64,000 bases of DNA. Origin: a bacterium (GTDB lineage Bacteria > Patescibacteriota > Minisyncoccia > UBA6257 > WO2-44-18). The stretch covers positions 86,666-150,665 of the forward strand of contig JAUYHP010000031.1 of assembly GCA_030689595.1 (NCBI GenBank), given 5' to 3'. Shown one piece after another: positions 3,969-63,236 of the stretch. The notes under the pieces were generated by a model, which did not search any database, had not been told where the DNA came from, and saw only the letters and a list, made by a program, of their open reading frames with translations. The position numbers were made by a program, and so were the translations under genes. How positions within the stretch are numbered: position 1 is the first letter of the stretch; each line of letters begins with the position of its first letter.

Positions 3969-4222
3969 AAACCTGGAGATTGATTATCGAACCTTTATAA
4001 TAATTATGGCCTATTACCAATTCTGAAGCCACCCAAAATTGAATGATGTGGTGGCTTTACTATAACAACAATGATAAGCTTATGTTGATATTTTGGCAAA
4101 TCCAAAAAGTCATAATAGTTTTCCACAGAAAGTGCACAGTTTATTCGATTTGGCCATTTGCCCTCCGACAACATAGTGCATTAAAATTAGTTTTACGACT
4201 TATTAATAGTTTTCAAATTCAA
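3969..4222. promoter_or_regulatory. rpmH/dnaA divergent intergenic region with DnaA-box-like sites
   Basis: Contains TTTTCCACA (one mismatch to the TTATCCACA DnaA box) upstream of the dnaA start. Probably holds the dnaA promoter and autoregulatory boxes. Confidence 0.3.
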
Positions 4223-9718: not shown

Positions 9719-10180
9719 TTAAAGTCTATTCATATTAGCGGCAGTGATAGCTATGGCTAAAGCATCGCTAGCATCGTCGTGGCCGCTAATCTCTTGGACA
9801 TTCAAGAGCTTAGTTACCATCTTAGCAACTGCTTTTTTATCTGCAAGACCATAACTGGTAACAGCCATTTTAACCTCTTGTGGACCATATTCTCTTATTG
9901 CGATTTTATGTTTTAGGAGGCAGTAGAGTATAACCCCCCTAGCTTGTGCCACATCAATGGCAGTTTTTCTATTTGTGGAAAAGAATATCTTTTCTACAGC
10001 GGCTAAATCTGGTTTAGCGTCCAGTATTAGCTTCTCCAAGCCGCTAGCTAATACTAGAAGCTTATCATTGCCTTTGTCGGTTATTTCTAAGACACCATAA
10101 TTTATTAACGTCAGTGGGCGATCGTTGACCAACCCATAGCCTATGCGTGACGTTCCCGGATCTATGCCTAGAATTTTCAT
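9719..10180 (-). CDS. ruvC: Holliday junction resolvase RuvC
   Basis: MKILGIDPGTSRIGYGLV… N-terminus typical of RuvC; 153 aa. Confidence 0.9.
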   Translation of the reverse strand: MKILGIDPGTSRIGYGLVNDRPLTLINYGVLEITDKGNDKLLVLASGLEKLILDAKPDLAAVEKIFFSTNRKTAIDVAQARGVILYCLLKHKIAIREYGPQEVKMAVTSYGLADKKAVAKMVTKLLNVQEISGHDDASDALAIAITAANMNRL

Positions 10181-10716
10181 GATTGCATATTGGTTATAAT
10201 TTTTTGCACATCATCGTGCTCGTCCAATTTTTCTATTAGAGAATTAATTTTGTTTTTAGCATCTTCGGAAACTGCTTGCTTAAACTTAGCCTGCCATTCA
10301 TTATTTTCGGTGTCAGTCTGTTTATCGAATGACCACAAGACACTACCCCTCTCCGCCATTTTAGCATCGTTTTTATCTAAAAGATGCCTTAGCTCGGCGA
10401 TGGTGCGATTTGTGTTGTCAGTTATGGCTTCGATAATTATGGCTACTTTCTCTGGACCATAGGCCTCCACTGTTATTTCTTCTAATTCTTTGTCATCACC
10501 CGCCTTGTTAATAGCTCGTTCAATATTGTCATTGGGTACATTATTTTCTTTAGCTTTGGTAATGGCTGCCCGCAGACGTGGGTTGAAGTCTGGGTTAGCT
10601 TCTCGGCGGGCTGCTATAGAGACGGCTTTTAGCAATTTTGAAAACATCGCCGATCTCTTTTTGTCAGTTGCCCCCTTTTTATGTTTTATTTGACTCCATT
10701 TTGAGTGACCGGACAT
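10177..10716 (-). CDS. yebC: YebC/PmpR-family transcriptional regulator
   Basis: MSGHSKWSQIKHKKG…, the canonical YebC N-terminus. The start is taken at this Met rather than the upstream Met at 10740. Confidence 0.85.
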   Translation of the reverse strand: MSGHSKWSQIKHKKGATDKKRSAMFSKLLKAVSIAARREANPDFNPRLRAAITKAKENNVPNDNIERAINKAGDDKELEEITVEAYGPEKVAIIIEAITDNTNRTIAELRHLLDKNDAKMAERGSVLWSFDKQTDTENNEWQAKFKQAVSEDAKNKINSLIEKLDEHDDVQKIITNMQS

Positions 10717-10847
10717 ATGCTTAGTATAATAAGTTGACAATCAACAACAAGCAAATGACTGTTATTAAATTAAAAAGGCCTCCGATACTAAATCGGAGGA
10801 GCCTGGCTTTTTTGCTAGATAAGAATCACCCACCGGCGATATTATAT

Positions 10848-10918: not shown

Positions 10919-10994
10919 TGGTGCAGGCGGTGGGGATCGAACCCACGACCCACGGCTTAAAAGGCCGCTGCTCTACCAACTGAGCTACGCCTGC
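10919..10994 (-). tRNA. tRNA-Lys (anticodon UUU)
   Basis: The cloverleaf folds: acceptor gcaggcg/cgcctgc, anticodon loop cTTTTaa, T-loop gtgggttcgatcccac. The 3' tail is CCC, so CCA is not encoded. Confidence 0.85.
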
Positions 10995-11011
10995 ACATTT
11001 AGCTGCAAAGT

Positions 11012-11097
11012 TGGTAGTCGGGGAGGGATTCGAACCCTCATGATCTCGCGATCAATGGATTTTGAATCCATCGCGTCTGCCATTTCGCCACCCGACC
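11012..11097 (-). tRNA. tRNA-Leu (anticodon CAA), type II with long variable arm
   Basis: ggtcgggtggcgaaatggcagacgc…, anticodon loop ttCAAaa, long variable arm, encoded CCA. Confidence 0.85.
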
Positions 11098-11112
11098 GAA
11101 CAACAACTGGTT

Positions 11113-11197
11113 TGGTGTGCTCGGTGGGGGTCGAACCCACATAGCCGGAGCCATCGGGTCCTAAACCCGACGCGTCTGCCAGTTCCGCCACGAGCAC
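11113..11197 (-). tRNA. tRNA-Leu (anticodon UAG), type II
   Basis: gtgctcgtggcggaactggcagacgc…, anticodon loop ttTAGga, long variable arm, encoded CCA. Confidence 0.85.
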
Positions 11198-11207
11198 AAA
11201 ATAGGTG

Positions 11208-11249
11208 TCGCAGGTGGGTCTATAACCCACTCAAGTTAGCCTCTGCGAC
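11208..11249. other. Nested hairpin between tRNA genes; not a tRNA
   Basis: gtcgcag[gtgggt-ctataa-acccac]…ctgcgac. Too short for a tRNA. Possibly an RNase processing or spacer structure. Confidence 0.3.
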
Positions 11250-11272
11250 AACATGTTTAGCGAAGCATGAAA

Positions 11273-11359
11273 TGGTACCACGGGAGGGATTCGAACCCTC
11301 ACGGCCCAAGGGCCAGGGGATTTTAAGTCCCCAGCGTCTGCCAGTTCCGCCACCGCGGC
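11273..11359 (-). tRNA. tRNA-Leu (anticodon UAA), type II
   Basis: gccgcggtggcggaactggcagacgc…, anticodon loop ctTAAaa, long variable arm, encoded CCA. Confidence 0.85.
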
Positions 11360-29209: not shown

Positions 29210-29345
29210 GAGACGCTATGACCTTGGCTTCGTTCTAAAAGGTTTTGACCACCGCCGACGTTATTGATAGTATGGTCCTTCAGCCCAGCTTGTGTGAATG
29301 TGTAGTAATAAAATGATTGCCGATTCGTTATAATATGCAGTAGGG

Positions 29346-29354
29346 TTATCCACA
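29346..29354. promoter_or_regulatory. Perfect consensus DnaA box TTATCCACA
   Basis: Exact 9-mer in the leader region of the surface-protein gene. Confidence 0.35.
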
Positions 29355-29430
29355 AATATTTTGTCGAAATCCTGCCAATTCGTTTATAATTTAATATAGA
29401 ATATCTCGGTTCGGAGTGAGGCTGAACTTA

Positions 29431-29504
29431 GATTAACCACAAATGATGCTGATGGCTAAAACCTTCAGCGTTGCGCTAGCTTTCGGCGTTGTTTGTGGTT
29501 AATC
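29431..29504. repeat. 13-bp perfect inverted repeat (gattaaccacaaa / tttgtggttaatc) enclosing 48 bp
   Basis: Read directly. Each arm carries a DnaA-box-like TTAACCACA. Forms a long stem-loop. Confidence 0.45.
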
Positions 29505-29514
29505 TAGTCAAATA

Positions 29515-29540
29515 ACTCGCTCTAAACAGCGAGTTTTTTC
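29515..29540 (+). terminator. Rho-independent terminator within the 550-bp leader
   Basis: actcgct-ctaaac-agcgagt followed by TTTTTT. Confidence 0.55.
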
Positions 29541-29759
29541 TTAGAAACCGAAGTTATTATTTTAAGTAGTCCGTCATCTACCTGCTGCCCATTTTCTAAC
29601 CTCCTCACGGTTAAGGAAGTGCCTCGCTCTGCGAGGTTGCTAGGCGGCTAGGGGGTCGCCTCAGTTGGGCGGAAGTTAGACGGTGGGTCGATCTTAAGGT
29701 CAATAGCTTTTTCCAGAATAAATAGTTAAAAATATTAAGTCGAAAAAATAAATTAAAAA

Positions 29760-32700: not shown

Positions 32701-33407
32701 TAGCTAAAGTAGCTATCCCGAGCTCAACTTTGATCAATGGTTCTGATAGAACTTTGTATAGGTTCTCGGTGACAGCTCCTTCTACCGGTGGCATTGGTTT
32801 GTACAAGTTTACCTTTGGCGTGGCTACTACTACTGATGGCGTGACTACTTTTGTGGTCAACGACTTTAGGGTATATGGCTACAGCGATTCTAGCTTCTCA
32901 CAATCGGCTTACGACAATAATGGTAGATTGAACAGCGCGACTGAAGCATTCACCAATCGCACTTTCGATAGTGCAATTGAGGTGTTCTTCGATCCAGTAG
33001 GTCAAGCCGGTACTAATGAAGCAATTCAAGTACCAGCTGGCTCGACTCGTTATTTTGAGTTGTTGGGCACTATCGCCAACTCAAGCGCGACGTCATCTAC
33101 GATTACCGTTAACTTGAGAGGTGATGATAGCCATCTAGCTGCTTCTAGCAGCGTGAGTGACGTTTACGCTGATACCTGGGTTGGTACTGGCGCTGGCCTT
33201 TATGCCTTTGCTACATCGGCTGCTAACGTGAATAACGGTTTGTATGGTGGTTATGATGCTGGAGCGGCCAATGGCATTCAAAATGACTTTATTTGGTCTG
33301 GTAACTCAACCACGACTTCAGGTGTAGGTCATTATGATTGGGTTAACGGCTTTTCGGTGAGTGGCTTGCCATCCACTAATCTGTCGTCAAATACCCTGAC
33401 TCCATAA
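29760..33407 (+). CDS. Giant Ser/Thr/Gly-rich cell-surface protein with a peptidoglycan-binding domain
   Basis: 1215 aa. Signal peptide, a coiled coil (ADLQAQINTLLAQITALQAQLL) and a PG_binding_1-like segment (DVKCLQQYLNGAGY…). Then about 1000 aa of T/S/G/A/V/N-rich beta-type repeats. Confidence 0.8.
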   Translation: MSTKLTQKLTSVVLSATTVVWLSGAAAFLPVAHGQSVADLQAQINTLLAQITALQAQLLVTTSVPSVAVSCSFSRDLTVGSQGEDVKCLQQYLNGAGYPVASSGFGSAGSETTYFGSLTRAAAAAWQAGNNVAPAFGYFGPISRAKFSSLAASTPAPTSVPPGTTPTPVPAGSGLTVALSSSQPAEGLFGESFASRPFTKLTLTASSDGDVVVNALKVQRTGNSQDAVFSGVVALDDNGVRLGSAKTFGSDHTLRLTDSFTVKAGQTRTITLAGDSDSSQDAYAGQLVSLSLIGVETSANVNASYPLTGSQMTVNSTLAVGTLTLARGSFDPGSGQSKEIGTLGYTFSGLRLTAGSNEDVLVRSIRWNQSGSAGSGDLDNVKVVFDGVTYDTTTSSDGKYYTAAFGSGITINKGFNKEMYIKGDIVDGSNRTVDFDLYRFADLQVEGLTYGFGVLPTAATTSADNDDDGEFQDAQPVFDAFQATIGTGSIQVTTSNAVPAQNIAINLGDQPLGAFDVIVKGEPITVAQMVFRLSRWEGTSASASTQDITNVTLSDNNGVIVAGPVDIVSSGPTVTFSDTITFPVGTNTYTLKGKIGTDFADDNTVAASTTPNSDWTTVQGTVSNVTLTPSPSSDVTANTMTVKAGALRVSNLASPVAQTIVGGVNAFTFANFSFDTTSSGEDLRVNSIQSELNIGQVNSADDLTNCQIWDGNTALNTGSNTQNPGNSHASGTDLTFTFDQSLILPKGVNKTLSLKCNIAATTTANTGEAYVFTWAIPGDNDDVVPTGSVSGQTITETYVATSSSPNITVSNAGSLSVALDSGSPAISLASANTADNVLSKFRFTATNEAVNVAQIGLQLTGTASNTPQDLTKVTLWDGSDKVGEAIFTNDNATATVSGFVVPKDGDKILTIKGDISPIGTSQLGRPGHLVIVDYDGAASDSSGNATRGSGQSSGSTIYATPVTDLTTGSNGVRIYKSVPAVAKVAIPSSTLINGSDRTLYRFSVTAPSTGGIGLYKFTFGVATTTDGVTTFVVNDFRVYGYSDSSFSQSAYDNNGRLNSATEAFTNRTFDSAIEVFFDPVGQAGTNEAIQVPAGSTRYFELLGTIANSSATSSTITVNLRGDDSHLAASSSVSDVYADTWVGTGAGLYAFATSAANVNNGLYGGYDAGAANGIQNDFIWSGNSTTTSGVGHYDWVNGFSVSGLPSTNLSSNTLTP

Positions 33408-33464
33408 TTCGGCTAGATTCCTATACGTCTACTGACGGAAGGACTTGAGATCTATTCGGATAAA

Positions 33465-33493
33465 GCTACCCCCTTACGGGGGTAGCTTTTTGT
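33465..33493 (+). terminator. Strong rho-independent terminator after the surface-protein gene
   Basis: agctaccccc-ttac-gggggtagct followed by TTTTT. Confidence 0.7.
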
Positions 33494-33572
33494 TAGAGAA
33501 GAATCTCGAAAAGGATGATCTTATTAGGCAAAGGGGGTTGATTTGCATTCCGATCTTCGCTAGAATATATTC

Positions 33573-34145
33573 ATGAAAAAAATATTATCATGGACATTTG
33601 TAGGGGTATTATTAGTTGGGGTTTATATATTAGTTACTCCTAGTTGGGATTATGATTTTCCTAGATATCGTGGCGAATCCATTACTAAAATAGGTGATGA
33701 TCCATTCATCCAACAAGTACCGCAGGACTATGCAGAGAGATATCAACAGGAATTGTCAGAATACAAAGAGTCTTTGGCTAACGATCCCAGCGATATTGAA
33801 GGCTGGTTGCGCGTTGGTGTTATAAAACATTTTTTTAACAATCATGATGGTGCCAAAGATGTTTGGGAGTATGCTAAATTAGTTAACCCCAAGCATTCTA
33901 CCGCTTATTATAATTTGGGCGGTCTTTATGCCTGGTATCTTAACGACTTGGAAGCGGCTGAAGAAAACTATCTTGAAGCTTTGGAGATAGATCCTACTTT
34001 GCCATACATCTATCTTGGGTTAGCAGAATTTTATAGCGTTTTCTACACGGATAAAAATGACCAAATTGAGGAGGTTATTTCGCGTGGTTTGAAGATTCTT
34101 CCTGATGATGAGAGCTTGTTGAAAGCCCTAGAAGATTATCGTTAA
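33573..34145 (+). CDS. Membrane-anchored TPR-repeat protein
   Basis: N-terminal TM helix and TPR-like repeats (AYYNLGGLYAW…, YIYLGLAEFY…). Confidence 0.6.
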   Translation: MKKILSWTFVGVLLVGVYILVTPSWDYDFPRYRGESITKIGDDPFIQQVPQDYAERYQQELSEYKESLANDPSDIEGWLRVGVIKHFFNNHDGAKDVWEYAKLVNPKHSTAYYNLGGLYAWYLNDLEAAEENYLEALEIDPTLPYIYLGLAEFYSVFYTDKNDQIEEVISRGLKILPDDESLLKALEDYR

Positions 34146-35341
34146 GTCTTTTTAATCAAATAGATATTTTCAGTAGCTTTTGTCATATTAGCTATGTTTA
34201 GCCAAGTTTTTATACCTTGTTTGGCATTAATTGCTAGTTTTTCACGCTCATTTTTATTGGTGATAAGGTGCTCTATAGCTCTGGCTAATTCGGTCGGTTC
34301 CTTGGGCATGACTATCAATCCGCGATGTTGGTTGGTTTTATGATTTTCTACTACTTCGGGCATGCCGCCGATGCGAGTGGTTATAATCGGTAAGCCGGCC
34401 GCCATAGCCTCCAAAAGCGTAAAAGGCAGACCTTCTTTGATAGACGACAAGACAAATGTATCATAGGCCTTAAGATAAGGAGCAGCGGGGAAGAGGTTGC
34501 TTACGATAAAAAATCGGTTAAGCAGTCCGAGTTTAATTATTAATGACTGAAGACTTTTCTTTTCTTGCCCATCGCCGACTATGAAAAACTTAATATCGGG
34601 GTTATTTATGAGGGCCGCCGCTTTTACGAAGGTTTCGTAGTTTTTTTCTTTTACCAGACGGCCGATTGAGCCGATCCAGGTTTGGTCAGTGAGCAGCGGA
34701 TATCTGGTATTGGGTAGTAATTTTAGTAGAGCTTTGCGGGCGGCGGTTTTATCCAGGAAATGTAGACGCTTTGTGTCCAGTCCATTATGAATAGTTGTCA
34801 ATTTTTCGGGTTGGCTGATTTTATATTTTAGTGCCAGCTTGTGGTCATATTGGGAAACATTGATTATATGGTCTTGGAAATGAGCGGCTAATCTATGCGT
34901 CCAAATATAAAATTGGCGTAACAATGGGTTGATGGCGTTGGTTGGATTGAAGACCCAGCCATGAGCGGTGAATATTACCTTGGGCGTTGGGCGTTGGGTT
35001 TTAGGTTTCAGAACTTTATACAGGGTGGCGGCGAAAGCGCCAATGATGCCGGCTTTGGAGCTGTTGAGGTGGATGATATCCGGCTGGTGTTTATTAAAGA
35101 TTCGCCATAGTTCTATGGTGGCTAGGACGTCATTAGCAAATAATAGATAGGGCCTAAAGGAATTTGAAAGCCAGCGGGATGTTAAATGGTGCGATAATGA
35201 TGTTCCGGCTTTTCCGGTTAATATTAGGGCTTCAAATTTATGGCTGTCTAGATTGCTAATGAGGTCGTTAATATATTTTTGGGCGCCACCTATATCTCCT
35301 TTGGTGACAACATAAAGAATTTTTAATTTTGACTGGGTCAT
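34142..35341 (-). CDS. Glycosyltransferase family 4 (GT-B fold)
   Basis: LKILYVVTKGDIGGAQ… N-terminus and a C-terminal EGLPFTLLEAMAAGLPIITTRIGG motif (the E-X7-E region). Confidence 0.75.
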   Translation of the reverse strand: MTQSKLKILYVVTKGDIGGAQKYINDLISNLDSHKFEALILTGKAGTSLSHHLTSRWLSNSFRPYLLFANDVLATIELWRIFNKHQPDIIHLNSSKAGIIGAFAATLYKVLKPKTQRPTPKVIFTAHGWVFNPTNAINPLLRQFYIWTHRLAAHFQDHIINVSQYDHKLALKYKISQPEKLTTIHNGLDTKRLHFLDKTAARKALLKLLPNTRYPLLTDQTWIGSIGRLVKEKNYETFVKAAALINNPDIKFFIVGDGQEKKSLQSLIIKLGLLNRFFIVSNLFPAAPYLKAYDTFVLSSIKEGLPFTLLEAMAAGLPIITTRIGGMPEVVENHKTNQHRGLIVMPKEPTELARAIEHLITNKNEREKLAINAKQGIKTWLNIANMTKATENIYLIKKT

Positions 35342-35364
35342 AGGTTTTATAATACGATCTATAT

Positions 35365-36606
35365 ATGAAGGATAGAGATTTAAGTAGTTTAATCAAGAAA
35401 GAGATGAAGAGGCAAGAGATGACGATTAATCTTATTGCTTCGGAAAATTATGTTTCTCCCGAAGTTTTAGAAGTTGTCGGTTCGCCATTGATGAATAAGT
35501 ATTCCGAGGGTTATCCTGGTAGGCGCTATTATCCCGGCAATGAATTTTATGATAATATCGAGGTCTTGGCTCAAAAGCGGGCTCTAGAGGTTTTCGGTTT
35601 GAAACCTGATGACTGGAGCGTGAATGTTCAGTCGTATTCTGGCTCACCGGCGAATTTAGCTATCCAGCTAGCGCTAATGAACTGGGGAGACGTGTTGATG
35701 GGTATGCAGCTTCCGTCTGGCGGCCATTTAACCCATGGCCATAAAGCTAGTTTTTCCGGTAAGGCTTATAAGGCCGTGCAGTATGGCACAGATGCCAAAA
35801 CCGGCTTGATTGATTTTAAAAAAGTTAAGGCACTAGCTAAAAAGTATAACCCCAAAGTAATTATTTCGGGTTTCACGGCCTATCCGCGCAAAATTGATTT
35901 CAAAAAATTTGGCGATATTGCCAAATCAGTTGGCGCCTATCATGTGGCTGATATTTCTCATGTTGCCGGTCTGATTCTCGCCGGTTTACATCCCAGTCCC
36001 TTTTCTAACGCTGACGTGGTTATGACTACGACCCATAAGACTTTACGAGGTCCAAGAGGGGCGGTTATTTTTGTAAATCGTAAATCGAAAATCGCGAAGC
36101 GTAATAAGATTGATTTACCTAAGGCGATTGATAAGGCTGTTTTCCCAGGGGTCCAGGGCGGTCCGCACAACAACATCACTGCTGCTAAGGCCCTTTCGTT
36201 TTCAGAGGCAAGTCGCCCTTCTTTTAAGAAATATCAACGACAAATAATTGCCAATGCTAAATTTTTAGCTAGCGAGCTCATAAAGCTTGGATTTAATCTA
36301 GCCACTAACGGAACCGATAATCATTTAATGTTAATAGATTTAAAAAGCTGCAATATGGATGGCGCTATTGCAGAAAGATTATTAGAGAAGAACGATATTA
36401 CCGCTAATCGCAATGCCATATTTGGCGATAAGTCTCCGCTAAAGCCGTCTGGTCTTAGGATAGGAACGCCAGCAGTTACTAGTAGAGGCATGAAGAAGTT
36501 GCAAATGAAGCAAATAGCTTCGTTAATATATCGTTGCTTGATAGGCCGAGAGGACATAAAGACGGAAGTGGCGGTGCTTTGCAAAAGGTTTCCATTACCT
36601 TATTAA
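35365..36606 (+). CDS. glyA: Serine hydroxymethyltransferase
   Basis: LIASENYVSPEVLEVVGSPLMNKYSEGYPGRRYY and the PLP-lysine region TTTTHKTLRGPRG. Confidence 0.95.
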   Translation: MKDRDLSSLIKKEMKRQEMTINLIASENYVSPEVLEVVGSPLMNKYSEGYPGRRYYPGNEFYDNIEVLAQKRALEVFGLKPDDWSVNVQSYSGSPANLAIQLALMNWGDVLMGMQLPSGGHLTHGHKASFSGKAYKAVQYGTDAKTGLIDFKKVKALAKKYNPKVIISGFTAYPRKIDFKKFGDIAKSVGAYHVADISHVAGLILAGLHPSPFSNADVVMTTTHKTLRGPRGAVIFVNRKSKIAKRNKIDLPKAIDKAVFPGVQGGPHNNITAAKALSFSEASRPSFKKYQRQIIANAKFLASELIKLGFNLATNGTDNHLMLIDLKSCNMDGAIAERLLEKNDITANRNAIFGDKSPLKPSGLRIGTPAVTSRGMKKLQMKQIASLIYRCLIGREDIKTEVAVLCKRFPLPY

Positions 36607-36614
36607 TATCGCCA

Positions 36615-38525
36615 ATGTTTATTGTAGACGGGAAAAAAATTTCTCAAGAAATTATAGATTCACTATTTGTATTGCCCAAGCCGCAAAATAGTTTGGCGGC
36701 TGTTTTAGTTGGTGATGATCCTGCCTCATTGAGTTTCTTAAAGCAGAAACAAAAAATTGCCGAGAAATTGAAAATAGATTTTCGGTTAAATACACTCCCC
36801 GATTCATTAACGGAAAACGAACTTAAAGAAAAAATCAGTGAATTGAGCTCAGATAAATCTATTGGTGGCATTATCATACAGCTACCATTACCGTCGAAAT
36901 ATGATCGGGGCAAGGTTTTAGAATCGTTGTCCTTAGAAAAAGACGTGGATGGCTTAAGTGGTGGTATTTTGCCGCCAGCGGTAGCTACTGTGGAAACTGT
37001 ATTGGACAACGCCAATTTTGACTTAAAAGATAGGACCGTGGCGGTAGTTGGTAGGGGGTTTTTAGTTGGTAGCCCGATAAGTAATTGGCTAAAAGATAAA
37101 TGTGACAAGCTGATTGTTCTAGACAGCCGAAGCGATATCAACCAGATCAAAGAAGCAGATTTAGTTATCAGCGGAGTAGGCAAGGCCGGCCTTATCAAGC
37201 CAGCAATGCTCAAGCTAGGAGCTGGAATCATAGATTTTGGCTATGACATCAAAGATGGAAGGATCTCTGGGGACTTTGACACCGATCGATTAGCCGATCT
37301 ACCCACGGATCAATACCCAGCTTTCTATACTCCCACCCCTGGAGGTACTGGCCCTATTCTAGTGGCCGAACTGTTTAGGAATTTTTATCGGCTGCAAGGA
37401 CTGATTAAAGCCAGGGTGGCTATTTTTAGCTTGGCTTATTTGCCGTTTGTTGGTGGTGCTGAATTAGCGGTTAAAGAAATTACTGATAGATTGCCGCAAT
37501 ATAATTTTACTTGTTTGACTCATAAATTTGAGTCGCAGTGGTCGGCAGAAGAAGCGATCGGCAATGTCAGGGTTATGCGTACCGGTCGTGGCCGAGGTTT
37601 TTGGTCCAAGATCTGCTATATCTTTCGAGTTTGGCGTCAAGCAGAGAAACTGCACAGGAAGCGACCTTTCCAGCTCATCTGGGCTGTCATGGCCGCTTAC
37701 GGTGGCTTAGCGGCCTTATTATTTAAACTAAGACATCCGAGTGTGCCGATGCTATTAACTTTGCAGGAGGGTGATTCTGAAAAACATATTCTAATGCGAG
37801 TTGGTATATTTTATCCTTTTTGGAAATTGATTTTCAAAAAAGCCAACTATGTTCAAGTTATCAGTAATTATCTTGCTGATTTTGCCCAGCGACACGGGGC
37901 TAAATGTTCGGTAGAAGTAGTGCCTAATGGAGTAGATTTAGAAAAATTTAGAATGGGCGCTCGACATGATGCTTCGAACACCAAAGTTATCATCACGACG
38001 TCGAGATTAGTGTATAAAAACGGAGTAGATATATTAATTCAGTCACTCAATGAGCTAGAAAAATTAGAAATTACTGATTATCGATTAAAAATATTAGGGA
38101 GCGGCCCTGATGAGAAAAAAATGAAAGATTTAGCCCAAGAGTTGGGCGTTGCTGACAAAGTAGAATTTTTGGGCCACATTGCGCCAGACGAAATCCCTAA
38201 ATATTTACAGCAAGCCGATATATTCGTGCGACCATCGCGCTCAGAAGGCCTTGGCAGCTCATTTCTTGAGGCTATGGCCGCTGAACTACCAATTATCGGT
38301 ACTGATGTTGGTGGTATAAAAGACTTTTTAGTCGATCAAGAGACTGGCCTAGTATGCAAAGTTGATGACCCAAGTGATTTAGCTAATAAATTGAAGTTGT
38401 TGTTTGATAATCAGCCACTAAGAGATAAGGTAGCCCAAAACGGTAAAAATCTAGTTATAACTAAATATAGCTGGGATATCATTACTGTGGATATGAAGAA
38501 TATATTAAACAAATTAGTTGCCTGA
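36615..38525 (+). CDS. folD: In-frame fusion of FolD (methylene-THF dehydrogenase/cyclohydrolase) and a GT4 glycosyltransferase
   Basis: Residues 1-275 are FolD-like (AAVLVGDDPAS, IIIQLPLP, VAVVGRGFLVGSPI, TPTPGGTGPILVAELF). They continue with no stop into a GT4 domain (RVAIFSLAYLPFVGGAELAV…SRSEGLGSSFLEAMAAELPIIGTDVGG). The start at 36615 lies 8 nt after the glyA stop. Confidence 0.7.
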   Translation: MFIVDGKKISQEIIDSLFVLPKPQNSLAAVLVGDDPASLSFLKQKQKIAEKLKIDFRLNTLPDSLTENELKEKISELSSDKSIGGIIIQLPLPSKYDRGKVLESLSLEKDVDGLSGGILPPAVATVETVLDNANFDLKDRTVAVVGRGFLVGSPISNWLKDKCDKLIVLDSRSDINQIKEADLVISGVGKAGLIKPAMLKLGAGIIDFGYDIKDGRISGDFDTDRLADLPTDQYPAFYTPTPGGTGPILVAELFRNFYRLQGLIKARVAIFSLAYLPFVGGAELAVKEITDRLPQYNFTCLTHKFESQWSAEEAIGNVRVMRTGRGRGFWSKICYIFRVWRQAEKLHRKRPFQLIWAVMAAYGGLAALLFKLRHPSVPMLLTLQEGDSEKHILMRVGIFYPFWKLIFKKANYVQVISNYLADFAQRHGAKCSVEVVPNGVDLEKFRMGARHDASNTKVIITTSRLVYKNGVDILIQSLNELEKLEITDYRLKILGSGPDEKKMKDLAQELGVADKVEFLGHIAPDEIPKYLQQADIFVRPSRSEGLGSSFLEAMAAELPIIGTDVGGIKDFLVDQETGLVCKVDDPSDLANKLKLLFDNQPLRDKVAQNGKNLVITKYSWDIITVDMKNILNKLVA

Positions 38526-38526
38526 T

Positions 38527-39576
38527 ATGAAAGTCGCTGTTATCGGTGCCGGTATTTTTGGCATAACTGTAGCCACCCGCTTGGCCAAAGAAGGCCACGA
38601 AATAGATCTATGGGAAAAGCAAGGCGATATTTTGACTGCGGCTTCTGGCATAAATCAATTCCGTCTTCATCGTGGCTATCACTATCCTCGATGTGATAGT
38701 ACGACTAGGTCGTCTTTAGAGACAGAAAAATTATTTAAACAAGAATATCCGGAGGCGATCATTAGTGATGGTGACCACTACTATTGCATTGCCAAAGAGC
38801 GCAGTCTAATTTCCGGGGAAACTTATGTTAATTTTTGTAAAAGCTTTAATTTAGAGTTTGCTCATCATAATTTGGACATAATAAATCCAGATTCAGTAGA
38901 TGTCTGCTTGAATGTTAAAGAAGATTTGATAGATGCGGATAAATTAAAAGAATTGTGTTTCGCTAAGATAAGGGAGTCGGGGGTGAATTTATTATTGGGT
39001 ATGGAGGCGACTAAAAAAGGTTTGGAAGATTATGACTTTGTTGTGATTTGCGCCTATGCCGCCACCAATAAACTCTTGGAAGATCGCCCAGGTTTACAGC
39101 GAGACTATCAATTTGAACTTTGTGAAAAGCCGGTATTGAGATTGCCGCCGATTTTCAATAACAAGAGCGTAGTGATTATGGACGGCCCTTTTACCTGCAT
39201 TGATCCCTATGGCAAGACTGGTTTATTTGTTATGGGTAATGTGGTTCATGCCATACATCAGACTAATGTTGGCAAATATCCGATTGTCGAAGACAAATTC
39301 AAGCCGCTTTTAAATAATGGTGTTATAAAAAATCCATCGATAACCAATATAAAATTATTTATTGAGGCGGCGTCATATTTTATGCCAGAGATAGTTAAAG
39401 CCGAGCATGTTGGCTCGATGTTTACTTTCAGGACTGTTTTGCCAAATCAAGACAAGACTGATTCGCGTCCAACCTTGGTAGATATGATCGATGACCGAAT
39501 TATCACTGTGTTTTCTGGTAAGATTAGTAATTGCATAGGGGCGGCTGAGAAAGTTTCTAGAATCATAAATTCCTGA
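38527..39576 (+). CDS. FAD/NAD(P)-binding Rossmann-fold oxidoreductase
   Basis: MKVAVIGAGIFGITVATRLAKEGHEIDLWE is a GxGxxG dinucleotide-binding N-terminus. Family not resolved; it does not look like Glf. Confidence 0.5.
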   Translation: MKVAVIGAGIFGITVATRLAKEGHEIDLWEKQGDILTAASGINQFRLHRGYHYPRCDSTTRSSLETEKLFKQEYPEAIISDGDHYYCIAKERSLISGETYVNFCKSFNLEFAHHNLDIINPDSVDVCLNVKEDLIDADKLKELCFAKIRESGVNLLLGMEATKKGLEDYDFVVICAYAATNKLLEDRPGLQRDYQFELCEKPVLRLPPIFNNKSVVIMDGPFTCIDPYGKTGLFVMGNVVHAIHQTNVGKYPIVEDKFKPLLNNGVIKNPSITNIKLFIEAASYFMPEIVKAEHVGSMFTFRTVLPNQDKTDSRPTLVDMIDDRIITVFSGKISNCIGAAEKVSRIINS

Positions 39577-39578
39577 CC

Positions 39579-40709
39579 ATGAAAATTATTTTAGCAGCTG
39601 GTGTATTTTACCCTGATGTGGGTGGGCCAGCTATACATGTTCGCAAAATTGCTGAAGCTTTTACCAAAAATGGTTGGAGCGTAAAAGTCATAACCTATGG
39701 ACATAATAAGGATGAGGATAATTTTCCCTTCGTTGTTAGTAGGGTTTCTAGGAGTTATCCTGGGTTTTTGCGCTGGCTGATATATTTTATTAAGATGTTT
39801 TTTAGTTCGTTTAATGCTGGAGCCATCTATGCTTTCGACCCCACCGCTGCTGGCTTACCAGCGGCTTTAGCGGCCAAGATTTTAAGAAAAAAATTTATTA
39901 TTAGATTGGGTGGCGATCCTATTTGGGAGCGTGTGGTAGAGCGTGGTGAGCGATTCTTATCTTTGGAGGACTATTATGAACAAAAGCTTCATCTACAAGA
40001 TAAGCCTAGGTTGTTCAAGTTGATAAGGTGGGTCATGAAATCGGCCGATAGAGTTGTTGTCTATTCACAATTTTTTAAAGATTTTTGTGTAAAATATTTA
40101 GGAGTGGAGCCGAATAGGATAGAGATAATAGCCAATCCCGTTACTAGGCGAGAAGACGCTTCAATGCCCAAGGAAATAGCCATATTGTTTGCTGGCCGAT
40201 TCGTGAAATACAAAAATCTGGAAATGCTGGTAGAGGTATTTGCTAAATTGAGATCAAAATTCCAGTATGGCAAGTTAATTTTGATAGGCCATGGGCCAGA
40301 AGAAGACGTGCTTCGGGATTTGGTTGAGAATATCGGGGCCAGCGATTATATCGAGATATTACCATCGCTTCCCCAAGAAGCATTATTTAATCAGATTCGT
40401 TCTGCTGCAGTTTGCATAGGCCCGGCTCTTAGCGAATTTAACCCTAATTTTATATTAGAGTGCTTATCGTTTGGCAAGCCGACTATTTTGAGCAAAGGGA
40501 ACGGCTTAACTGTGCAGTTGCCGGAAGACTGGCTGTTCGATCCTAAGAGCGCTAGTGATTTGGAAAACAAGTTGTCACAGTTTTTTGATAAGAATTTCTA
40601 TGAACAATCTTTGGCGCGAGTTAAGCAGTTACCGATGAGCCAGAGTTGGGAAAAAGTAGTTGGCGAACATATAGAAATAATAAAACAGATGACAAAGCGT
40701 AAAATTTAA
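39579..40709 (+). CDS. Glycosyltransferase family 4
   Basis: MKIILAAGVFYPDVGGPAIHV… GT-B N-terminal domain. 376 aa. Confidence 0.7.
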   Translation: MKIILAAGVFYPDVGGPAIHVRKIAEAFTKNGWSVKVITYGHNKDEDNFPFVVSRVSRSYPGFLRWLIYFIKMFFSSFNAGAIYAFDPTAAGLPAALAAKILRKKFIIRLGGDPIWERVVERGERFLSLEDYYEQKLHLQDKPRLFKLIRWVMKSADRVVVYSQFFKDFCVKYLGVEPNRIEIIANPVTRREDASMPKEIAILFAGRFVKYKNLEMLVEVFAKLRSKFQYGKLILIGHGPEEDVLRDLVENIGASDYIEILPSLPQEALFNQIRSAAVCIGPALSEFNPNFILECLSFGKPTILSKGNGLTVQLPEDWLFDPKSASDLENKLSQFFDKNFYEQSLARVKQLPMSQSWEKVVGEHIEIIKQMTKRKI

Positions 40710-40726
40710 ATGACAAAACTACGGAT

Positions 40727-41845
40727 ATGAAAGTTTTGATGTTATCGACAGACAAAAATATACTACAGAGCGGCACAGAAGTACATGAGAGGATGAAAGA
40801 ATATGCCAATTTGATTGAAGAACTGCACGTGGTTGTATATGGCAGACAGCGAATAGCCGAATCGCGGATAACGGCCAACTTTTTTATTTATTCAACCGTA
40901 AATAGCCATAAGATAGGTTATTTTAGGAGTGCTTATAATATCGGCCAAAAGATATTAGCAGATGGCGGTGAATGGATCATCACTGCCCAAGATCCTTTCG
41001 AGACCGGCCTAGTAGGTTATTGGCTTAAGAAAAGATTCAAGACGCCATTACAGCTGCAAATTCATACTGATTTTTTGAGTCCATATTTCTGGCAGGAATC
41101 TGTTAAAAATAAGATACGCGTTTTATTAGCCAAGTGGCTAGTAAAAAAGGCGGATTGTATTAGGGTAGTTTCGGAACGTATTAAAGGATCTTTAATTTCC
41201 CAATTTCCTAATTTTCCAATTTCGAGAATTATTGTTCTGCCTATCTTTATAGATGTAGACAAAATCCGAACAGCATCGGTTAAGACTGACTTGCGCAAAA
41301 AATATCCAGGCTACGATTTTATTATTCTGATGGCTTCTCGCTTGACTAAAGAAAAGAATATTAAGATGGCCATAGCATCGTTTGAAAATGCTAAGCATCA
41401 GATGTCGCCTGTCAAAAATCCATTGCTATTAATTGTCGGCGATGGTCCTAAAAAAAGAAGGCTAGATCCTCTAGTTGTGCGCTACTCGCTAGGCAACAAT
41501 GTAAAATTTGAGCCTTGGACTGATGATTTGGCGTCCTATTATAAAACTGCTGATTTATTTCTATTGACATCAAATTATGAAGGCTACGGCCGAACCATTA
41601 TAGAGGCCTTAGCCGCCGACTGTCCGGTTATATCTACAGATGTCGGTATAGCTAAGGAATTTATAGATGGCAATCATTTTGGTATAATAATTGCACCAAA
41701 TGATATGCGCGCCCTAGTAGGCGGCTTGCAAAAAATGGCTGGGCATAAAGAGCGATATCATGAGTTTAAAAATATCAGGTTGCCTGACAAAAACACTTAT
41801 TTGGATTTATTAAAAAGAACCTGGCTAAAATGTGATGGAAATTAA
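40727..41845 (+). CDS. Glycosyltransferase family 4
   Basis: MKVLMLSTDKNIL… and a C-terminal EGYGRTIIEALAADCPVISTDVG motif. Confidence 0.7.
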   Translation: MKVLMLSTDKNILQSGTEVHERMKEYANLIEELHVVVYGRQRIAESRITANFFIYSTVNSHKIGYFRSAYNIGQKILADGGEWIITAQDPFETGLVGYWLKKRFKTPLQLQIHTDFLSPYFWQESVKNKIRVLLAKWLVKKADCIRVVSERIKGSLISQFPNFPISRIIVLPIFIDVDKIRTASVKTDLRKKYPGYDFIILMASRLTKEKNIKMAIASFENAKHQMSPVKNPLLLIVGDGPKKRRLDPLVVRYSLGNNVKFEPWTDDLASYYKTADLFLLTSNYEGYGRTIIEALAADCPVISTDVGIAKEFIDGNHFGIIIAPNDMRALVGGLQKMAGHKERYHEFKNIRLPDKNTYLDLLKRTWLKCDGN

Positions 41846-42536
41846 AAAGATAACAATCATAATACCTGCTTATAACGAAAAAGAAACTATTCTTGAAATC
41901 ATAAGTAAGGTTAAGGCCGCTGATATCGGAGTTTTGAGTAAAGAAATTATTGTTGTCGATGATGGATCGACTGACGGTACGCGAGATATTCTCCGGGACA
42001 TACCTGGCATACAGGTTGTCTTACATAACAATAATTGTGGCAAAGGCGGCGCTGTCAAAACCGGATTTCATAACGCTACTGGTGATGTTTTGATCATTCA
42101 GGATGCTGATTTAGAATATGATCCGGCAGAATATTCCCTGTTATTAGAGCCAATATTGAAAAATAAAGCCGAAGTGGTTTATGGTTCGCGGTTTGTTTCC
42201 AGTAAGCCGAGACGTATTTTACTTTTCCATCATTATTTAGCGAATCGTTTTTTGACCTTCTTATCAAATTTGTTTACTAATCTTAATCTCAGCGATATGG
42301 AGACTTGTTATAAGGTTTTCTCCAATAATATCTATAAGCAATTGGAGCCAAAATTGGTGTCGCGGAGATTTGGCATAGAGCCGGAATTGACTGCTCGGGT
42401 TGCTAGGCTCAAGGCCAAAGTCTATGAAGTCGGCATCTCTTATCACGGCCGTAATTATGAAGAGGGCAAGAAGATTAATTGGCGTGATGGCATAGCGGCT
42501 ATTTGGCATATTATTCGATTTAACGTTTTCAACTAA
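41832..42536 (+). CDS. GT2 polyprenyl-phosphate sugar synthase (DPM1/GtrB-like)
   Basis: IIIPAYNE…VVDDGSTDGT…DADL (DXD) motifs; 234 aa. Immediately upstream of a GT-C gene. Confidence 0.75.
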   Translation: MMEIKKITIIIPAYNEKETILEIISKVKAADIGVLSKEIIVVDDGSTDGTRDILRDIPGIQVVLHNNNCGKGGAVKTGFHNATGDVLIIQDADLEYDPAEYSLLLEPILKNKAEVVYGSRFVSSKPRRILLFHHYLANRFLTFLSNLFTNLNLSDMETCYKVFSNNIYKQLEPKLVSRRFGIEPELTARVARLKAKVYEVGISYHGRNYEEGKKINWRDGIAAIWHIIRFNVFN

Positions 42537-60153: not shown

Positions 60154-62553
60154 TTGTTTAATAGAATAGAAAATTTTGGCGAACGATGGTATGGGGTTAC
60201 TGTTCTGCTAGCCCTATTGTTTATTTTAGCATTTGCGCCATTGCTGTTGGGTGGGCAGTTAGTTTTTGACGATGATTTACTTGGAACCTTCTATCCTTAT
60301 TATCATTTTTATTCTCAATCGATCGATAGTGGCGATAGCTTTCTCTGGAATCCAAATTCATCATCTGGCTATCCACCATTCGTAGGCATAGTGAATTCAT
60401 TATTATCGCCAGTTACTTATTTGTTGTCTGTTTTGCTACCGCCCTTGGCTAATTATCATTGGACGCTGTGGTTCTATATAGTTTTGGCGATATTTTTCTG
60501 TGATCTTTTTTTGCGTGATGTGGGCATCAAATTTTGGGGACGACTGATCGGTGCGCTAGTCTTTGTCAGCGGGCCGATATTTTTGAATCTGGATATTTCT
60601 ACTATAGCGCCGATGTATGCTCTGCCATTAATGTTGTTTTGTTTATGGCGCATTAAGCACAGTCAGAGATTGTGGGCCTATGTCATTTTGGGTGGTATTG
60701 GCCTGACGGTTTCTTGGCTGGCTAGTTTTCAAGGGTTCTTATTGCAGGTTTTTATATTTGCTGGTGCGTTCGTGTTGGTTCTAGGTTGGAAAGATCGAGT
60801 TGTTTTGCGTCGGTTGATTGCGGCTTTGATTTTAATAGTGCTGATTGCAGCAGCTTTAAGCTCCTTTTATCTGTATTGGGGGTCAACACTTGCTAGCTTA
60901 TCAGAGCGTGCTGGAGGGTTGAGTTATGAGCAATCGGCTGTAAAAGCTACTACGCTTTGGGATTTATCTAGATTCTGGCTGCCTAGTTTTAAGGTTAATT
61001 ATTTTGCCATTAGTCAGGCCACGCTTTATTTAGGATTTTTGCCATTATTTTTCTTTGTCTTAGCATTTTTTAAACGCCAGACTAACAGGCTTTATTATTT
61101 TTTCTTGCTAGCTTATGCAGTGGCGTTTCTTATTAGCATTAAATATTCGCCACTTTTTTGGATTTTGCAAAAATTACCCATTCTAAATTTATTTAAGGTG
61201 CCGAGTAGGTGGATGTTCACCAGTTCATTTGCGGCGGCCTTTTTAATAGCTACCAATGTAAATATAATTTTTGATTCAACGGAAAAAATTGGCAAAAAGA
61301 TTTATAGCTGGTTTGCTCGGGTGAATTGTACAATAGCCGCCATCATAGCGGTGGCGTCGTCATTATTTATATTTGGCTATGATAGGATATTAGCTTTTTT
61401 AAAAAGTCTTTTCTTAGCGAATTTTTATGCAGGCACATCGCAAGCCATACCATTAGATTCTTATTACCGACTTATAGAAACTTGGTTGGGCAATTTCAGA
61501 AGGGTTTTTGACTTATCAGTAGCCACAGTTTTTTGGCCATTTATATTTATGGTTTTGGGTTTGGCCCTGCTGTGGATTTTTTATAGCAAACAGATTTTAG
61601 ATAATAAATCATTCATTCGTTGGGCTGGCGTTCTGACAGTCTTTAATTTTCTATTTGTTCTCTACAGTTTTTACCCCACTTTCAGCCAAAAAATAGTTGA
61701 GGATAAATCACCAACTATAGAATTTTTACAGCAACATCCGGGCAAGTTTTTATCTTTTTTGCCTAATAGGCCTCATCATGAATACGCCGTCTCACCTCAC
61801 GATCTTACGATTGAGACTCAAGTCGCCCCTTGGCTATTGGGGTTGAATTCTGACATTCATCTATTATATGGCTTGGATGGCGCTGGCAACTCCGATTCCT
61901 TGTTGAATCGTCGTATGGGGAGATTGTTGGCGGCAGTGGGTGAGGGCTCAATTTTGGGTGAATCTGAAGAGGTTAATTTGATAGATCAATTGGTTACACC
62001 CGAAGAGAAAATTAAAACTTTGGAAAGTCGCCGCAACTTGTTAGATTGGCTTGGCATTCGTTATATTATCACTGCCTACGAGCTTGGAGAGCCTTTTAAA
62101 AAAGTTTTGACTACTCGTAATCAGCTACCATATGACTACGAAGTTTTTATTTATGAGAATCCAAGTTATCATTCGTCGGCTTATTTATCGGAGAACGTTG
62201 AGATTATGAAGCAAGACGAGCATATTTCTTTTCGGCGAATGTTTAATGCCGCTAGTGCCGATGTAGATATCTTAGAATGTATTACTGAAGCTTGTTTGGG
62301 TTTGGCCAACGGGTCGTTGGCAGACAACGATGGAGTGCATATAGTAGAGCGGCATAACGATTCTATAATTTTGACTGCTGAAACTGATCGGAGTAGGTTG
62401 CTGGTGTTGCTACAAAATAATTTACCGGGTTGGCTGGCTACTATTGATGGCCAACCGGCGGAAATATTGATGGTCAATGGTACATTTATTGCCACAATAG
62501 TGCCTACGGGCGACCACAAAATAGAATTCAAATATAAGCCATGGAAAATTTAA
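60154..62553 (+). CDS. Large YfhO-like / GT-C-type membrane protein
   Basis: 799 aa with 12 or more TM helices. N-terminal loop has LVFDDDLLGTFYPYYHF, as in YfhO-family glycosyltransferases. Followed by a sugar nucleotidyltransferase and a GT2. Confidence 0.45.
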   Translation: MFNRIENFGERWYGVTVLLALLFILAFAPLLLGGQLVFDDDLLGTFYPYYHFYSQSIDSGDSFLWNPNSSSGYPPFVGIVNSLLSPVTYLLSVLLPPLANYHWTLWFYIVLAIFFCDLFLRDVGIKFWGRLIGALVFVSGPIFLNLDISTIAPMYALPLMLFCLWRIKHSQRLWAYVILGGIGLTVSWLASFQGFLLQVFIFAGAFVLVLGWKDRVVLRRLIAALILIVLIAAALSSFYLYWGSTLASLSERAGGLSYEQSAVKATTLWDLSRFWLPSFKVNYFAISQATLYLGFLPLFFFVLAFFKRQTNRLYYFFLLAYAVAFLISIKYSPLFWILQKLPILNLFKVPSRWMFTSSFAAAFLIATNVNIIFDSTEKIGKKIYSWFARVNCTIAAIIAVASSLFIFGYDRILAFLKSLFLANFYAGTSQAIPLDSYYRLIETWLGNFRRVFDLSVATVFWPFIFMVLGLALLWIFYSKQILDNKSFIRWAGVLTVFNFLFVLYSFYPTFSQKIVEDKSPTIEFLQQHPGKFLSFLPNRPHHEYAVSPHDLTIETQVAPWLLGLNSDIHLLYGLDGAGNSDSLLNRRMGRLLAAVGEGSILGESEEVNLIDQLVTPEEKIKTLESRRNLLDWLGIRYIITAYELGEPFKKVLTTRNQLPYDYEVFIYENPSYHSSAYLSENVEIMKQDEHISFRRMFNAASADVDILECITEACLGLANGSLADNDGVHIVERHNDSIILTAETDRSRLLVLLQNNLPGWLATIDGQPAEILMVNGTFIATIVPTGDHKIEFKYKPWKI

Positions 62554-63236
62554 ACCCAATAACTAAAGCAATTATACTAGCAGCCGGGCGTGGTACGCGC
62601 ATGCGTCACTTAACCGAAGATGTGCCCAAGCCGCTTTTAAAAGTTGGTGGCAAACCTTTTTTGGATATTATTTTTGACGCTTTACCAGAAAGCATTCGTG
62701 AAGTGATCGTAGTAATTGGCTACAGAAAAGATTTGATAAGAAATCACTTGGGCACCAACTACAAAGGCAAAAAAATAGATTATGTTGTTCAAGAAAAACT
62801 TACTGGCACTGGTCATGCGGTTTTATTAACTAAGGATTTGTTTGATGATGGCGAGAGGTTTCTAGTTTTTTATGGCGACGAGTTGATAGCCAAGAATGAT
62901 GTTGATGCCGTGCTTGAGCATGATCTTGGTTGGTTGTGTTGGGAGGTGGTTAATCCCAAGGCCTCGGGCATCGTAACTGTAACGGTGGAGGGGTTGATAA
63001 CTGAAATCGTTGAAAAGCCCAAAAAGCCTAAGTCTAAACTAGGCGTCGGAGGTCTAATATCGCTCAACGCCGATATCTTTAATTATGTACCCGATCAGCA
63101 CGAAACTGGTGAATATTATTTAACCGATATGATGAATCAATTTCTTAAAGATCATAAGGTACATGTAGTTATTGGTAAAAATCGCCCGTCTTTTAGTTCG
63201 CCAGAGGATATTTCTGCCGTTCATGAGACTGATTGA
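62541..63236 (+). CDS. Sugar-phosphate nucleotidyltransferase
   Basis: AIILAAGRGTRMRHLTEDVPKPLLKVGGKP is the G-x-G-T-R nucleotidyltransferase signature. 231 aa. Confidence 0.7.
   Translation: MENLNPITKAIILAAGRGTRMRHLTEDVPKPLLKVGGKPFLDIIFDALPESIREVIVVIGYRKDLIRNHLGTNYKGKKIDYVVQEKLTGTGHAVLLTKDLFDDGERFLVFYGDELIAKNDVDAVLEHDLGWLCWEVVNPKASGIVTVTVEGLITEIVEKPKKPKSKLGVGGLISLNADIFNYVPDQHETGEYYLTDMMNQFLKDHKVHVVIGKNRPSFSSPEDISAVHETD

Follow-up and report, generated by a model that had tools for sequence, protein, structure and literature searches.

Can one bacterial gene encode two unrelated enzymes, and if it does, is this an error of sequence, a new kind of enzyme or an accident of gene packing? The question is raised by a locus in a 64,000-nucleotide stretch of DNA (the window; GenBank assembly GCA_030689595.1, contig JAUYHP010000031.1, positions 86,666 to 150,665 of the forward strand) from a bacterium of the Patescibacteriota (GTDB lineage Minisyncoccia; UBA6257; WO2-44-18). 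Here the gene for FolD, an enzyme of tetrahydrofolate (THF) metabolism, runs in frame into a gene for a glycosyltransferase (GT) of family GT4. As the explanation that we favour with moderate confidence, we propose a genuine, lineage-specific translational gene fusion at a very tight gene junction, which would give a two-enzyme polypeptide without evident chemical coupling.

Layout of the fused gene

The six-frame list of open reading frames (ORFs) contained a single open frame on the + strand from 36534 to 38525. The homology-backed start is ATG 36615 (MFIVDGKKISQEI...; MFIVDGKK...), placed 8 nucleotides (nt) past the TAA stop of glyA (35365-36606), and the stop is TGA 38523-38525, yielding a product of 636 amino acids (aa). 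GenBank names this product 'MAG: glycosyltransferase [bacterium]', on a contig of 191,615 bp. Its parts are:

36615..38525, + strand: fused ORF FolD-GT4, 636 aa, GenBank MDP2696257.1
36615..37394, + strand: FolD domain (methylene-THF dehydrogenase / methenyl-THF cyclohydrolase), aa 1-260, Pfam PF00763 and PF02882
37395..37409, + strand: connector QGLIK, aa 261-265, a coil between helix 245-260 and strand 266-271 in the AlphaFold model
37410..38522, + strand: GT_A, a GT4 of retaining type with GT-B fold by its Pfam domains, aa 266-636, Pfam PF13439 and PF00534

Pfam assigned the four expected domains to the 636-aa protein, each above its gathering score: THF_DHG_CYH (PF00763, FolD catalytic; aa 5-112, 88.5 bits, cutoff 32.8), THF_DHG_CYH_C (PF02882, FolD NAD(P)-binding; aa 117-259, 85.7 bits, cutoff 27), Glyco_transf_4 (PF13439; aa 279-444, 43.3 bits, cutoff 28.5) and Glycos_transf_1 (PF00534; aa 454-612, 151.1 bits, cutoff 26.4). 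Codon-by-codon reading of 37365-37467 revealed no in-frame stop at the FolD/GT junction. The deposited sequence does contain the fused ORF, and a first, sequence-only reading of the window was right in describing a complete FolD joined to a complete GT4 without a stop. Its measures are corrected here: the FolD portion comprises about 260-265 aa, not about 275, and the domain boundary lies at 37395-37412 (aa 261-266), not at about 37440. An AlphaFold2 model of the fused protein, computed from a checked, balanced alignment (A3; 25 FolD and 8 GT homologues), had a mean predicted local distance difference test (pLDDT) score of 86.9 and a predicted template modelling (pTM) score of 0.75.

Integrity of the two halves

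Over aa 1-260 the model reaches a pLDDT of about 92-97, and the domain closes with helix 245-260 (...LVAELFRNFYRL). In agreement with a FolD fold, the N-terminal part matched FolD sequences in the PDB at an E-value of 2.6e-36 and, in Foldseek, solved FolD structures at target-normalised TM-scores of 0.75-0.85. Of the 69 alignment columns with a conservation of 90% or more among homologues, the FolD part retains 65, where homologues miss 2.0 on average. In an alignment to PDB entries 6ape and 3l07 and 118 homologues, the catalytic Lys of the YxxxK motif, the Gln of QLPLP, the Asp of KDVDG and the PGGTGP loop are all kept. The earlier description of a FolD with all hallmark motifs holds for these three residues and needs amending for the Tyr of YxxxK, which is replaced by Phe, the family consensus (SFLKQK) of FolD throughout Parcubacteria. 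The best NCBIfam match, NF010787, scored 150 bits and stayed below the FolD equivalog cutoff of 423; since 65 of the 69 family-conserved columns are kept, we infer that the low score reflects the divergence of the whole Parcubacteria FolD family and not a defect of this copy.

The nearest known counterparts of this half are stand-alone FolD proteins of 255-275 aa from Parcubacteria/Patescibacteria (for example P0121, P0122 and, from Candidatus Jorgensenbacteria, P0129), with 51-59% identity over aa 1-262. They share the motifs SFLKQK, QLPLP, KDVD and YTPTPGGTGPILVAELFxNFY as well as the place right after glyA, but end 2-10 residues past NFY, whereas the frame in the window runs on into the glycosyltransferase. 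That a C-terminal fusion of this fold is tolerated is illustrated by eukaryotic MTHFD1, in which a FolD-type domain is followed by another enzyme. The D/C domains of human MTHFD1 match the fold of the window FolD at a target-normalised TM-score of about 0.8. This trifunctional C1-tetrahydrofolate synthase, however, joins the FolD-type domain to formyl-THF synthetase, which follows it in the pathway, in a fusion that is conserved; here the partner is an unrelated GT and the fusion a singleton. Pfam found no formate-tetrahydrofolate ligase (FTHFS) domain in the fused protein, the C-terminal part being the GT4.

GT_A carries the N-terminal RVAIFSLAYLPFVGGAE motif, the Gly-rich loop PFVGGAE after strand beta-1 and the E-x7-E motif EGLGSSFLE, and retains 105 of 109 family-conserved columns by the same definition, where homologues miss 2.8 on average. 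Its matches to PDB sequences are weak (PimB' and bacillosamine-PP-undecaprenol GalNAc transferase), as is the similarity in Foldseek of the C-terminal part to the retaining GT4 MshA. It belongs to a Parcubacteria GT4 family (M..A[IV]FSLAYxPFVGGAE; for example P0012, P0017, P0003, P0010), whose members are 55-66% identical over aa 266-636, share the N-terminal and E-x7-E motifs and have the GT_B partner (the second GT4 of the locus, described below) encoded nearby. They differ from the window protein in having their own Met start, and occur alone, at about 380 aa, or as GT4-GT4 tandems of about 750 aa.

About half of the closest GT_A homologues (P0002-P0120) are such tandems, and their second half is the orthologue of window gene 39579-40709, as found by tblastn with the C-terminal halves of P0002-P0075. 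The window protein does not have this architecture; its ORF ends at aa 636, and the GT_B orthologue is a separate gene. Among homologues, P0029 has an LPG_synthase_TM domain at its N-terminus, where P0008 bears a homologous extension. The fusion partners in the family are a C-terminal GT4 or an N-terminal LPG_synthase_TM, never FolD. Judged from these sequences, the GT_A family is fusion-prone, with at least two other fusion types.

A decaying locus, in which the fusion has inactivated one partner and the ORF is turning into a pseudogene, would fit a singleton event with a short connector, yet it is extremely unlikely, as both halves keep their conserved residues at the homologues' rate, both domains are confidently modelled, and neither stops nor frameshifts interrupt the ORF. 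By conservation and predicted structure both domains are intact, and both enzymes are probably still active.

Search for the fusion elsewhere

The homologue searches list top matches, and clusters at 50% identity can hide members. With the whole protein as query, only the fused protein itself covered more than 59% of the query among the best 120 of 2,362 matches, the rest being GT-only. With the FolD part, no FolD-GT fusion occurred among the best 120 matches (up to 59% identity), which come from Parcubacteria such as Jorgensenbacteria and Colwellbacteria and measure 255-311 aa, except for one unrelated fusion of 420 aa. The 39 FolD homologue C-termini inspected end 2-10 residues after the conserved NFY. 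On the other side of the junction, GT relatives (up to 66% identity) have their own Met 2-40 residues ahead of A[IV]FSLAY. The connector thus sits at the site where stand-alone FolD homologues terminate and the GT's own Met occurs.

A 135-aa junction fragment, searched with HMMER against 1.84 billion representatives, gave 595 matches, none of which spanned the junction among the best 150; these covered the query from 1 to about 66 or from about 70 to 135, never both. In a set of 5.8 billion proteins no match covered more than 54% of the fragment; the candidates scored in that search numbered only 138, were mostly short and did not include the query protein. No PDB chain spanning both parts was found, and literature searches on a FolD-glycosyltransferase architecture and on the run accession yielded nothing relevant. 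A scan of GTDB species representatives with the FolD part returned only a 44%-identical Saccharibacteria folD and no close relative, and a scan of JGI metagenomes with the whole fusion returned four loci, all GT-only and unfused, with another GT4 or a tetratricopeptide repeat (TPR) protein encoded upstream.

The FolD-GT4 domain architecture is apparently undescribed, as the sequence-only reading had supposed, being absent from PDB chains, from the listed representative proteins and from the literature searched. Within the sequences sampled, the fusion is a singleton, a one-off event. FolD is also found sporadically with other fusions or extensions in metagenome protein sets: P0178 (420 aa) combines FolD with GxxExxY, and in P0260 (424 aa) FolD is C-terminal. 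Singleton FolD fusions, as these two proteins demonstrate, occasionally turn up.

Orthologous loci

For comparison with related genomes, the neighbours of the fused gene are:

35365..36606, + strand: glyA, serine hydroxymethyltransferase (SHMT; Pfam SHMT 527.6 bits, MDP2696256.1), directly upstream; makes 5,10-methylene-THF for FolD
38527..39576, + strand: FAD-dependent oxidoreductase-like gene between GT_A and GT_B (Pfam DAO, MDP2696258.1); not at this place in the relative L007
39579..40709, + strand: GT_B, second GT4; orthologue fused C-terminally to GT_A in the homologues of about 750 aa, and adjoining GT_A in L007
40727..41845, + strand: GT_C, third GT4 of the syntenic block by Pfam; third GT of L007 53% identical

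The glyA-folD pair is conserved in all relatives examined, while the gene that follows folD varies among them and encodes a GT4, a methyltransferase or a sigma factor. The sole relative with the gene order of the window, glyA-folD-GT_A-GT_B-GT_C in the same orientation, is L007, a 13,137-bp Logan contig of run SRR22388314. Its identities to the window proteins are 52% for FolD, 58% for GT_A (aa 267-634), 46% for GT_B and 53% for GT_C. In contrast to the window, it has no oxidoreductase gene between GT_A and GT_B, and folD and GT_A are separate genes that overlap by 10 nt in different frames: folD ends ...SFYELCE-TAG, with the stop at 2213-2215, and GT_A starts in the other frame at ATG 2206 (MRIGIFSLAY...), a start that had been clipped by the gene caller.

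In nine relatives the 3' boundary of folD takes the form TAATG (1-nt overlap; four cases), ATGA (one), a 10-nt overlap (one), TAAATG (one) or a spacer of about 44 nt (two), so that the spacer is 0 nt or less in seven of the nine. Because these boundaries are so tight, one small mutation can merge folD with the next gene. Many neighbouring genes of the window likewise abut or overlap. One relative has, between glyA and folD, genes for a reverse transcriptase (RVT_1) and for bAvd (L004 3664-5011 and L005 1124-2059); together they resemble a diversity-generating retroelement, and the end of the reverse transcriptase gene overlaps the start of folD.

The sequence-only reading had offered a real bifunctional protein, a lost stop codon or an assembly error, and had named orthologous loci as a check, with a stop or frameshift between the two parts in related genomes as refutation. 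The outcome of this comparison speaks against a conserved bifunctional enzyme, because folD and GT are separate in L007, with folD ending in TAG, and because all close FolD homologues stand alone among the best 120 listed.

Reliability of the sequence at the junction

A Logan assembly of run SRR13727534 contains an 8,869-bp contig (L001) that is 100% identical to window 33257-42125 and carries the same 636-aa gene. Since this independent contig matches base for base, neither scaffolding nor the workings of a single assembler can account for the fusion, which disposes of the assembler-specific form of the error offered earlier. The junction itself reads, in frame, CGG CTG CAA GGA CTG ATT AAA GCC AGG GTG (R L Q G L I K A R V). 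A single substitution separates three connector codons from a stop (CAA or AAA against TAA, GGA against TGA), and two further features are found here:

37402..37408, + strand: off-frame stops at the domain boundary, TGA 37402-37404 (+1 frame) and TAA 37406-37408 (+2 frame)
37416..37418, + strand: in-frame GTG (V268), the sole conventional alternative start near the GT N-terminus, one residue before AIFSLAY

The off-frame stops may be relics of the old end of folD, a weak hint that would fit a frameshift upstream of the old folD stop. Stops in both off-frames occur by chance in 24% of 8-codon windows in the genes of this genome, and the tight pattern seen here occurs at 0.7% of codons, or about 5% for a connector-sized stretch; as proof of a frameshift origin the stops were rejected, being merely weakly unusual.

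These stops, lying exactly at the boundary in both other frames, would also fit if the organism in fact had separate folD and GT_A genes and a one-base indel or substitution had entered the consensus, or the assembler had picked a minority variant. Such a sequence error would further account for the singleton nature of the fusion and would need only a single indel, since the L007 genes overlap out of frame. We nevertheless consider it unlikely. Two assemblies agree over 8.9 kb, and no broken genes are evident among about 50 neighbours. A simple error is also argued against because restoring the stop leaves the GT without a start codon and because the junction lacks a long homopolymer, the longest being AAA. 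A single base-calling error should leave the GT's own start codon visible, and none is present in the sequence: between M198 and M321 there is no in-frame ATG, and reverting an indel does not supply one, whereas all 43 of the 43 window genes checked start with ATG as annotated, in A/T-rich contexts. The missing ATG suggests either a later mutation of the old start (ATT 37404 differs by a single base from an ATG that would give the family-typical MKARVAIFSLAY) or an original start at GTG 37416. In this genome the fused ORF is most probably authentic, its lineage having lost the boundary between the two genes.

A genuine fusion frame could still be accompanied by internal initiation, with the GT also or mainly made alone from GTG 37416 (or ATT 37404) and some fusion made by read-through. 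In its favour are the in-frame GTG at V268, immediately ahead of the conserved motif, and an AAGGA 15 nt upstream of it. The sequence-only reading had pointed to this GTG and to its ribosome-binding site, giving its position as 37424; the codon exists, at 37416-37418, but the argument from a ribosome-binding site carries little weight because the genome almost never uses Shine-Dalgarno sites, an AGGA/GGAG match being present at about 5 of 43 gene starts and at a typical distance in only three of those. A spacing of 15 nt is too long for a Shine-Dalgarno site. A start at this codon would, moreover, make the N-terminus one residue shorter than that of any full-length homologue, the assigned starts of the window genes are uniformly ATG, and the junction shows no special RNA structure. 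From these sequence features the use of GTG 37416 as a start codon is unlikely, and internal initiation as a whole is distinctly improbable.

Several other mechanisms were considered for the junction and rejected. A canonical slippery heptamer, as for programmed frameshifting, is not present in the sequence. A regulatory RNA is not indicated, the folding of 37370-37470 being equal to that of shuffled sequence (z = -0.03). A hairpin AGCCAGGGTGGCT (AGCCA-GGG-TGGCT) followed by ATTTTT at 37409-37431, on the domain boundary, is at chance level by the shuffle expectation in the region, and its T-run stems from conserved Ile-Phe codons. An alternative genetic code was dismissed, the ORF being free of any internal stop and TAA, TGA and TAG all terminating neighbouring genes.

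The envelope-glycan cluster

The window comes from the 41% GC genome of an uncultured, Parcubacteria-like (Patescibacteria) bacterium and has housekeeping genes that include dnaA, dnaN, a class A penicillin-binding protein and ruvABC. A large envelope-glycan cluster spans 34142 to at least 59701 and encodes, besides GT_A, seven GT4, two GT2 and three PMT_2-type GT-C proteins, together with a UDP-GlcNAc 2-epimerase, an LPG_synthase_TM protein, a UbiA-family prenyltransferase, an epimerase/dehydratase, S-adenosylmethionine (SAM)-dependent methyltransferases and an asparagine synthase. The glyA-folD pair (window 35365-37394) lies inside or beside envelope glycopolymer clusters also in at least eight other Parcubacteria loci (L002, L004, L007, L008, L009, L014, L015, L016), where the clusters include GT4, Glyphos_transf, CTP_transf_3 and SAM methyltransferases. 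Ahead of glyA, L002 and L015 encode a 2-hydroxyacid dehydrogenase that may be serA-like.

The earlier idea that one-carbon metabolism is co-expressed with envelope synthesis is borne out at the level of the operon only, by the position of glyA-folD within glycan clusters in many relatives, and fails as a designed link through the fusion; this association within the operon may hold more interest than the fusion. A link through N-formyl sugars was rejected, as neither a formyltransferase nor any other sugar enzyme that depends on folate turned up in the scan of window proteins, from which ORFs 60154-63236 and the small ORFs were left out.

It is at this point that a selected bifunctional enzyme has to be weighed, in which the fusion would tie one-carbon metabolism physically to the making of envelope glycan and might supply units derived from 10-formyl- or methylene-THF for glycan decoration, or link the GT to folate/NADP status. 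The recurrent placement of glyA-folD at glycopolymer clusters speaks for it, as do two intact domains, a GT without its own start codon and, in the model, a pTM that is fairly high for two independent enzymes fused. Set against this, the fusion is conserved in no relative, the downstream neighbour of folD differs between relatives, no sugar formyltransferase or folate-using glycan enzyme was seen among the scanned proteins, and the connector has just 5 residues and resembles leftover gene-end sequence. We regard such an enzyme as quite unlikely. The more specific proposal that the fusion is fixed and selected as a 'Rosetta stone', with one-carbon units of GlyA/FolD or NADPH of FolD feeding the synthesis or decoration of envelope glycopolymers and FolD tethered to membrane-proximal GT machinery, is very unlikely.

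Proposed origin and product of the fusion

For the lineage-specific fusion at a tight junction, the following route is proposed. The ancestor would have had an operon as in L007, glyA - folD - GT_A - GT_B - GT_C, with the folD stop abutting or overlapping the GT_A start, and a small boundary mutation would have brought folD into the GT_A frame without an intervening stop. Candidate mutations are an indel that shifted the last codons of folD, or an in-frame stop loss (TAA to CAA or AAA, TGA to GGA). Translation would yield one polypeptide of about 70 kDa, as estimated from 636 aa, in which a 5-residue coil links the two domains. The N-terminal FolD is predicted to convert 5,10-methylene-THF, provided by GlyA from the gene upstream, to 10-formyl-THF, and the C-terminal retaining GT4 would act with the downstream GT4, GT2 and GT-C enzymes in building the envelope glycan. 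We infer that the two activities probably persist and are chemically independent, and that the fusion yields only 1:1 co-expression and is probably neutral.

Some points weigh against this account. Both assemblies may rest on the same reads, so that a consensus error common to both is conceivable. The lineage has been sampled once, and the neighbouring SHMT falls into a 90%-identity cluster of size 1, which limits judgement of the age and fixation of the fusion. The in-frame GTG 37416 could allow some separate synthesis of the GT, and the fused protein is known here from its gene sequence, with production and activity predicted.

Other features of the window

Three DnaA-box-like sites lie within 160 nt at 29346-29502 (intergenic region 29210-29759), one of them a perfect TTATCCACA and two with one mismatch, at a distance of 25 kb from dnaA (4043-5587). 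Across the window, DnaA boxes with at most one mismatch are enriched, with 37 found against 17.6 expected. Four tRNA genes cluster at 10919-11359 on the - strand (Lys-UUU, Leu-CAA, Leu-UAG and Leu-UAA), and Rfam at gathering threshold detected no other known RNA family in the window. A YebC/TACO1-like ORF at 10177-10740 on the - strand encodes 187 aa from a first possible start TTG, with Pfam domains two and three partly covered, and may be a shortened variant or mis-started.

Implications

As related genomes keep folD and GT separate, the FolD-GT4 gene has the appearance of an accident that tight gene packing brought about in one lineage, and not of a new kind of enzyme, and a specialist will not be surprised to meet an isolated fusion of neighbouring genes in a metagenome-assembled genome. 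If the fusion were selected, it would constitute an unexpected tie of folate metabolism to envelope glycan synthesis in episymbiotic bacteria, a view that the present evidence does not support. The locus does illustrate clearly how genes that overlap or abut in the compact operons of such reduced genomes can merge into multidomain proteins. It also has a practical consequence: a record named only 'glycosyltransferase' masks the only visible folD of this genome, and metabolic reconstructions of this reduced genome could wrongly call FolD missing.

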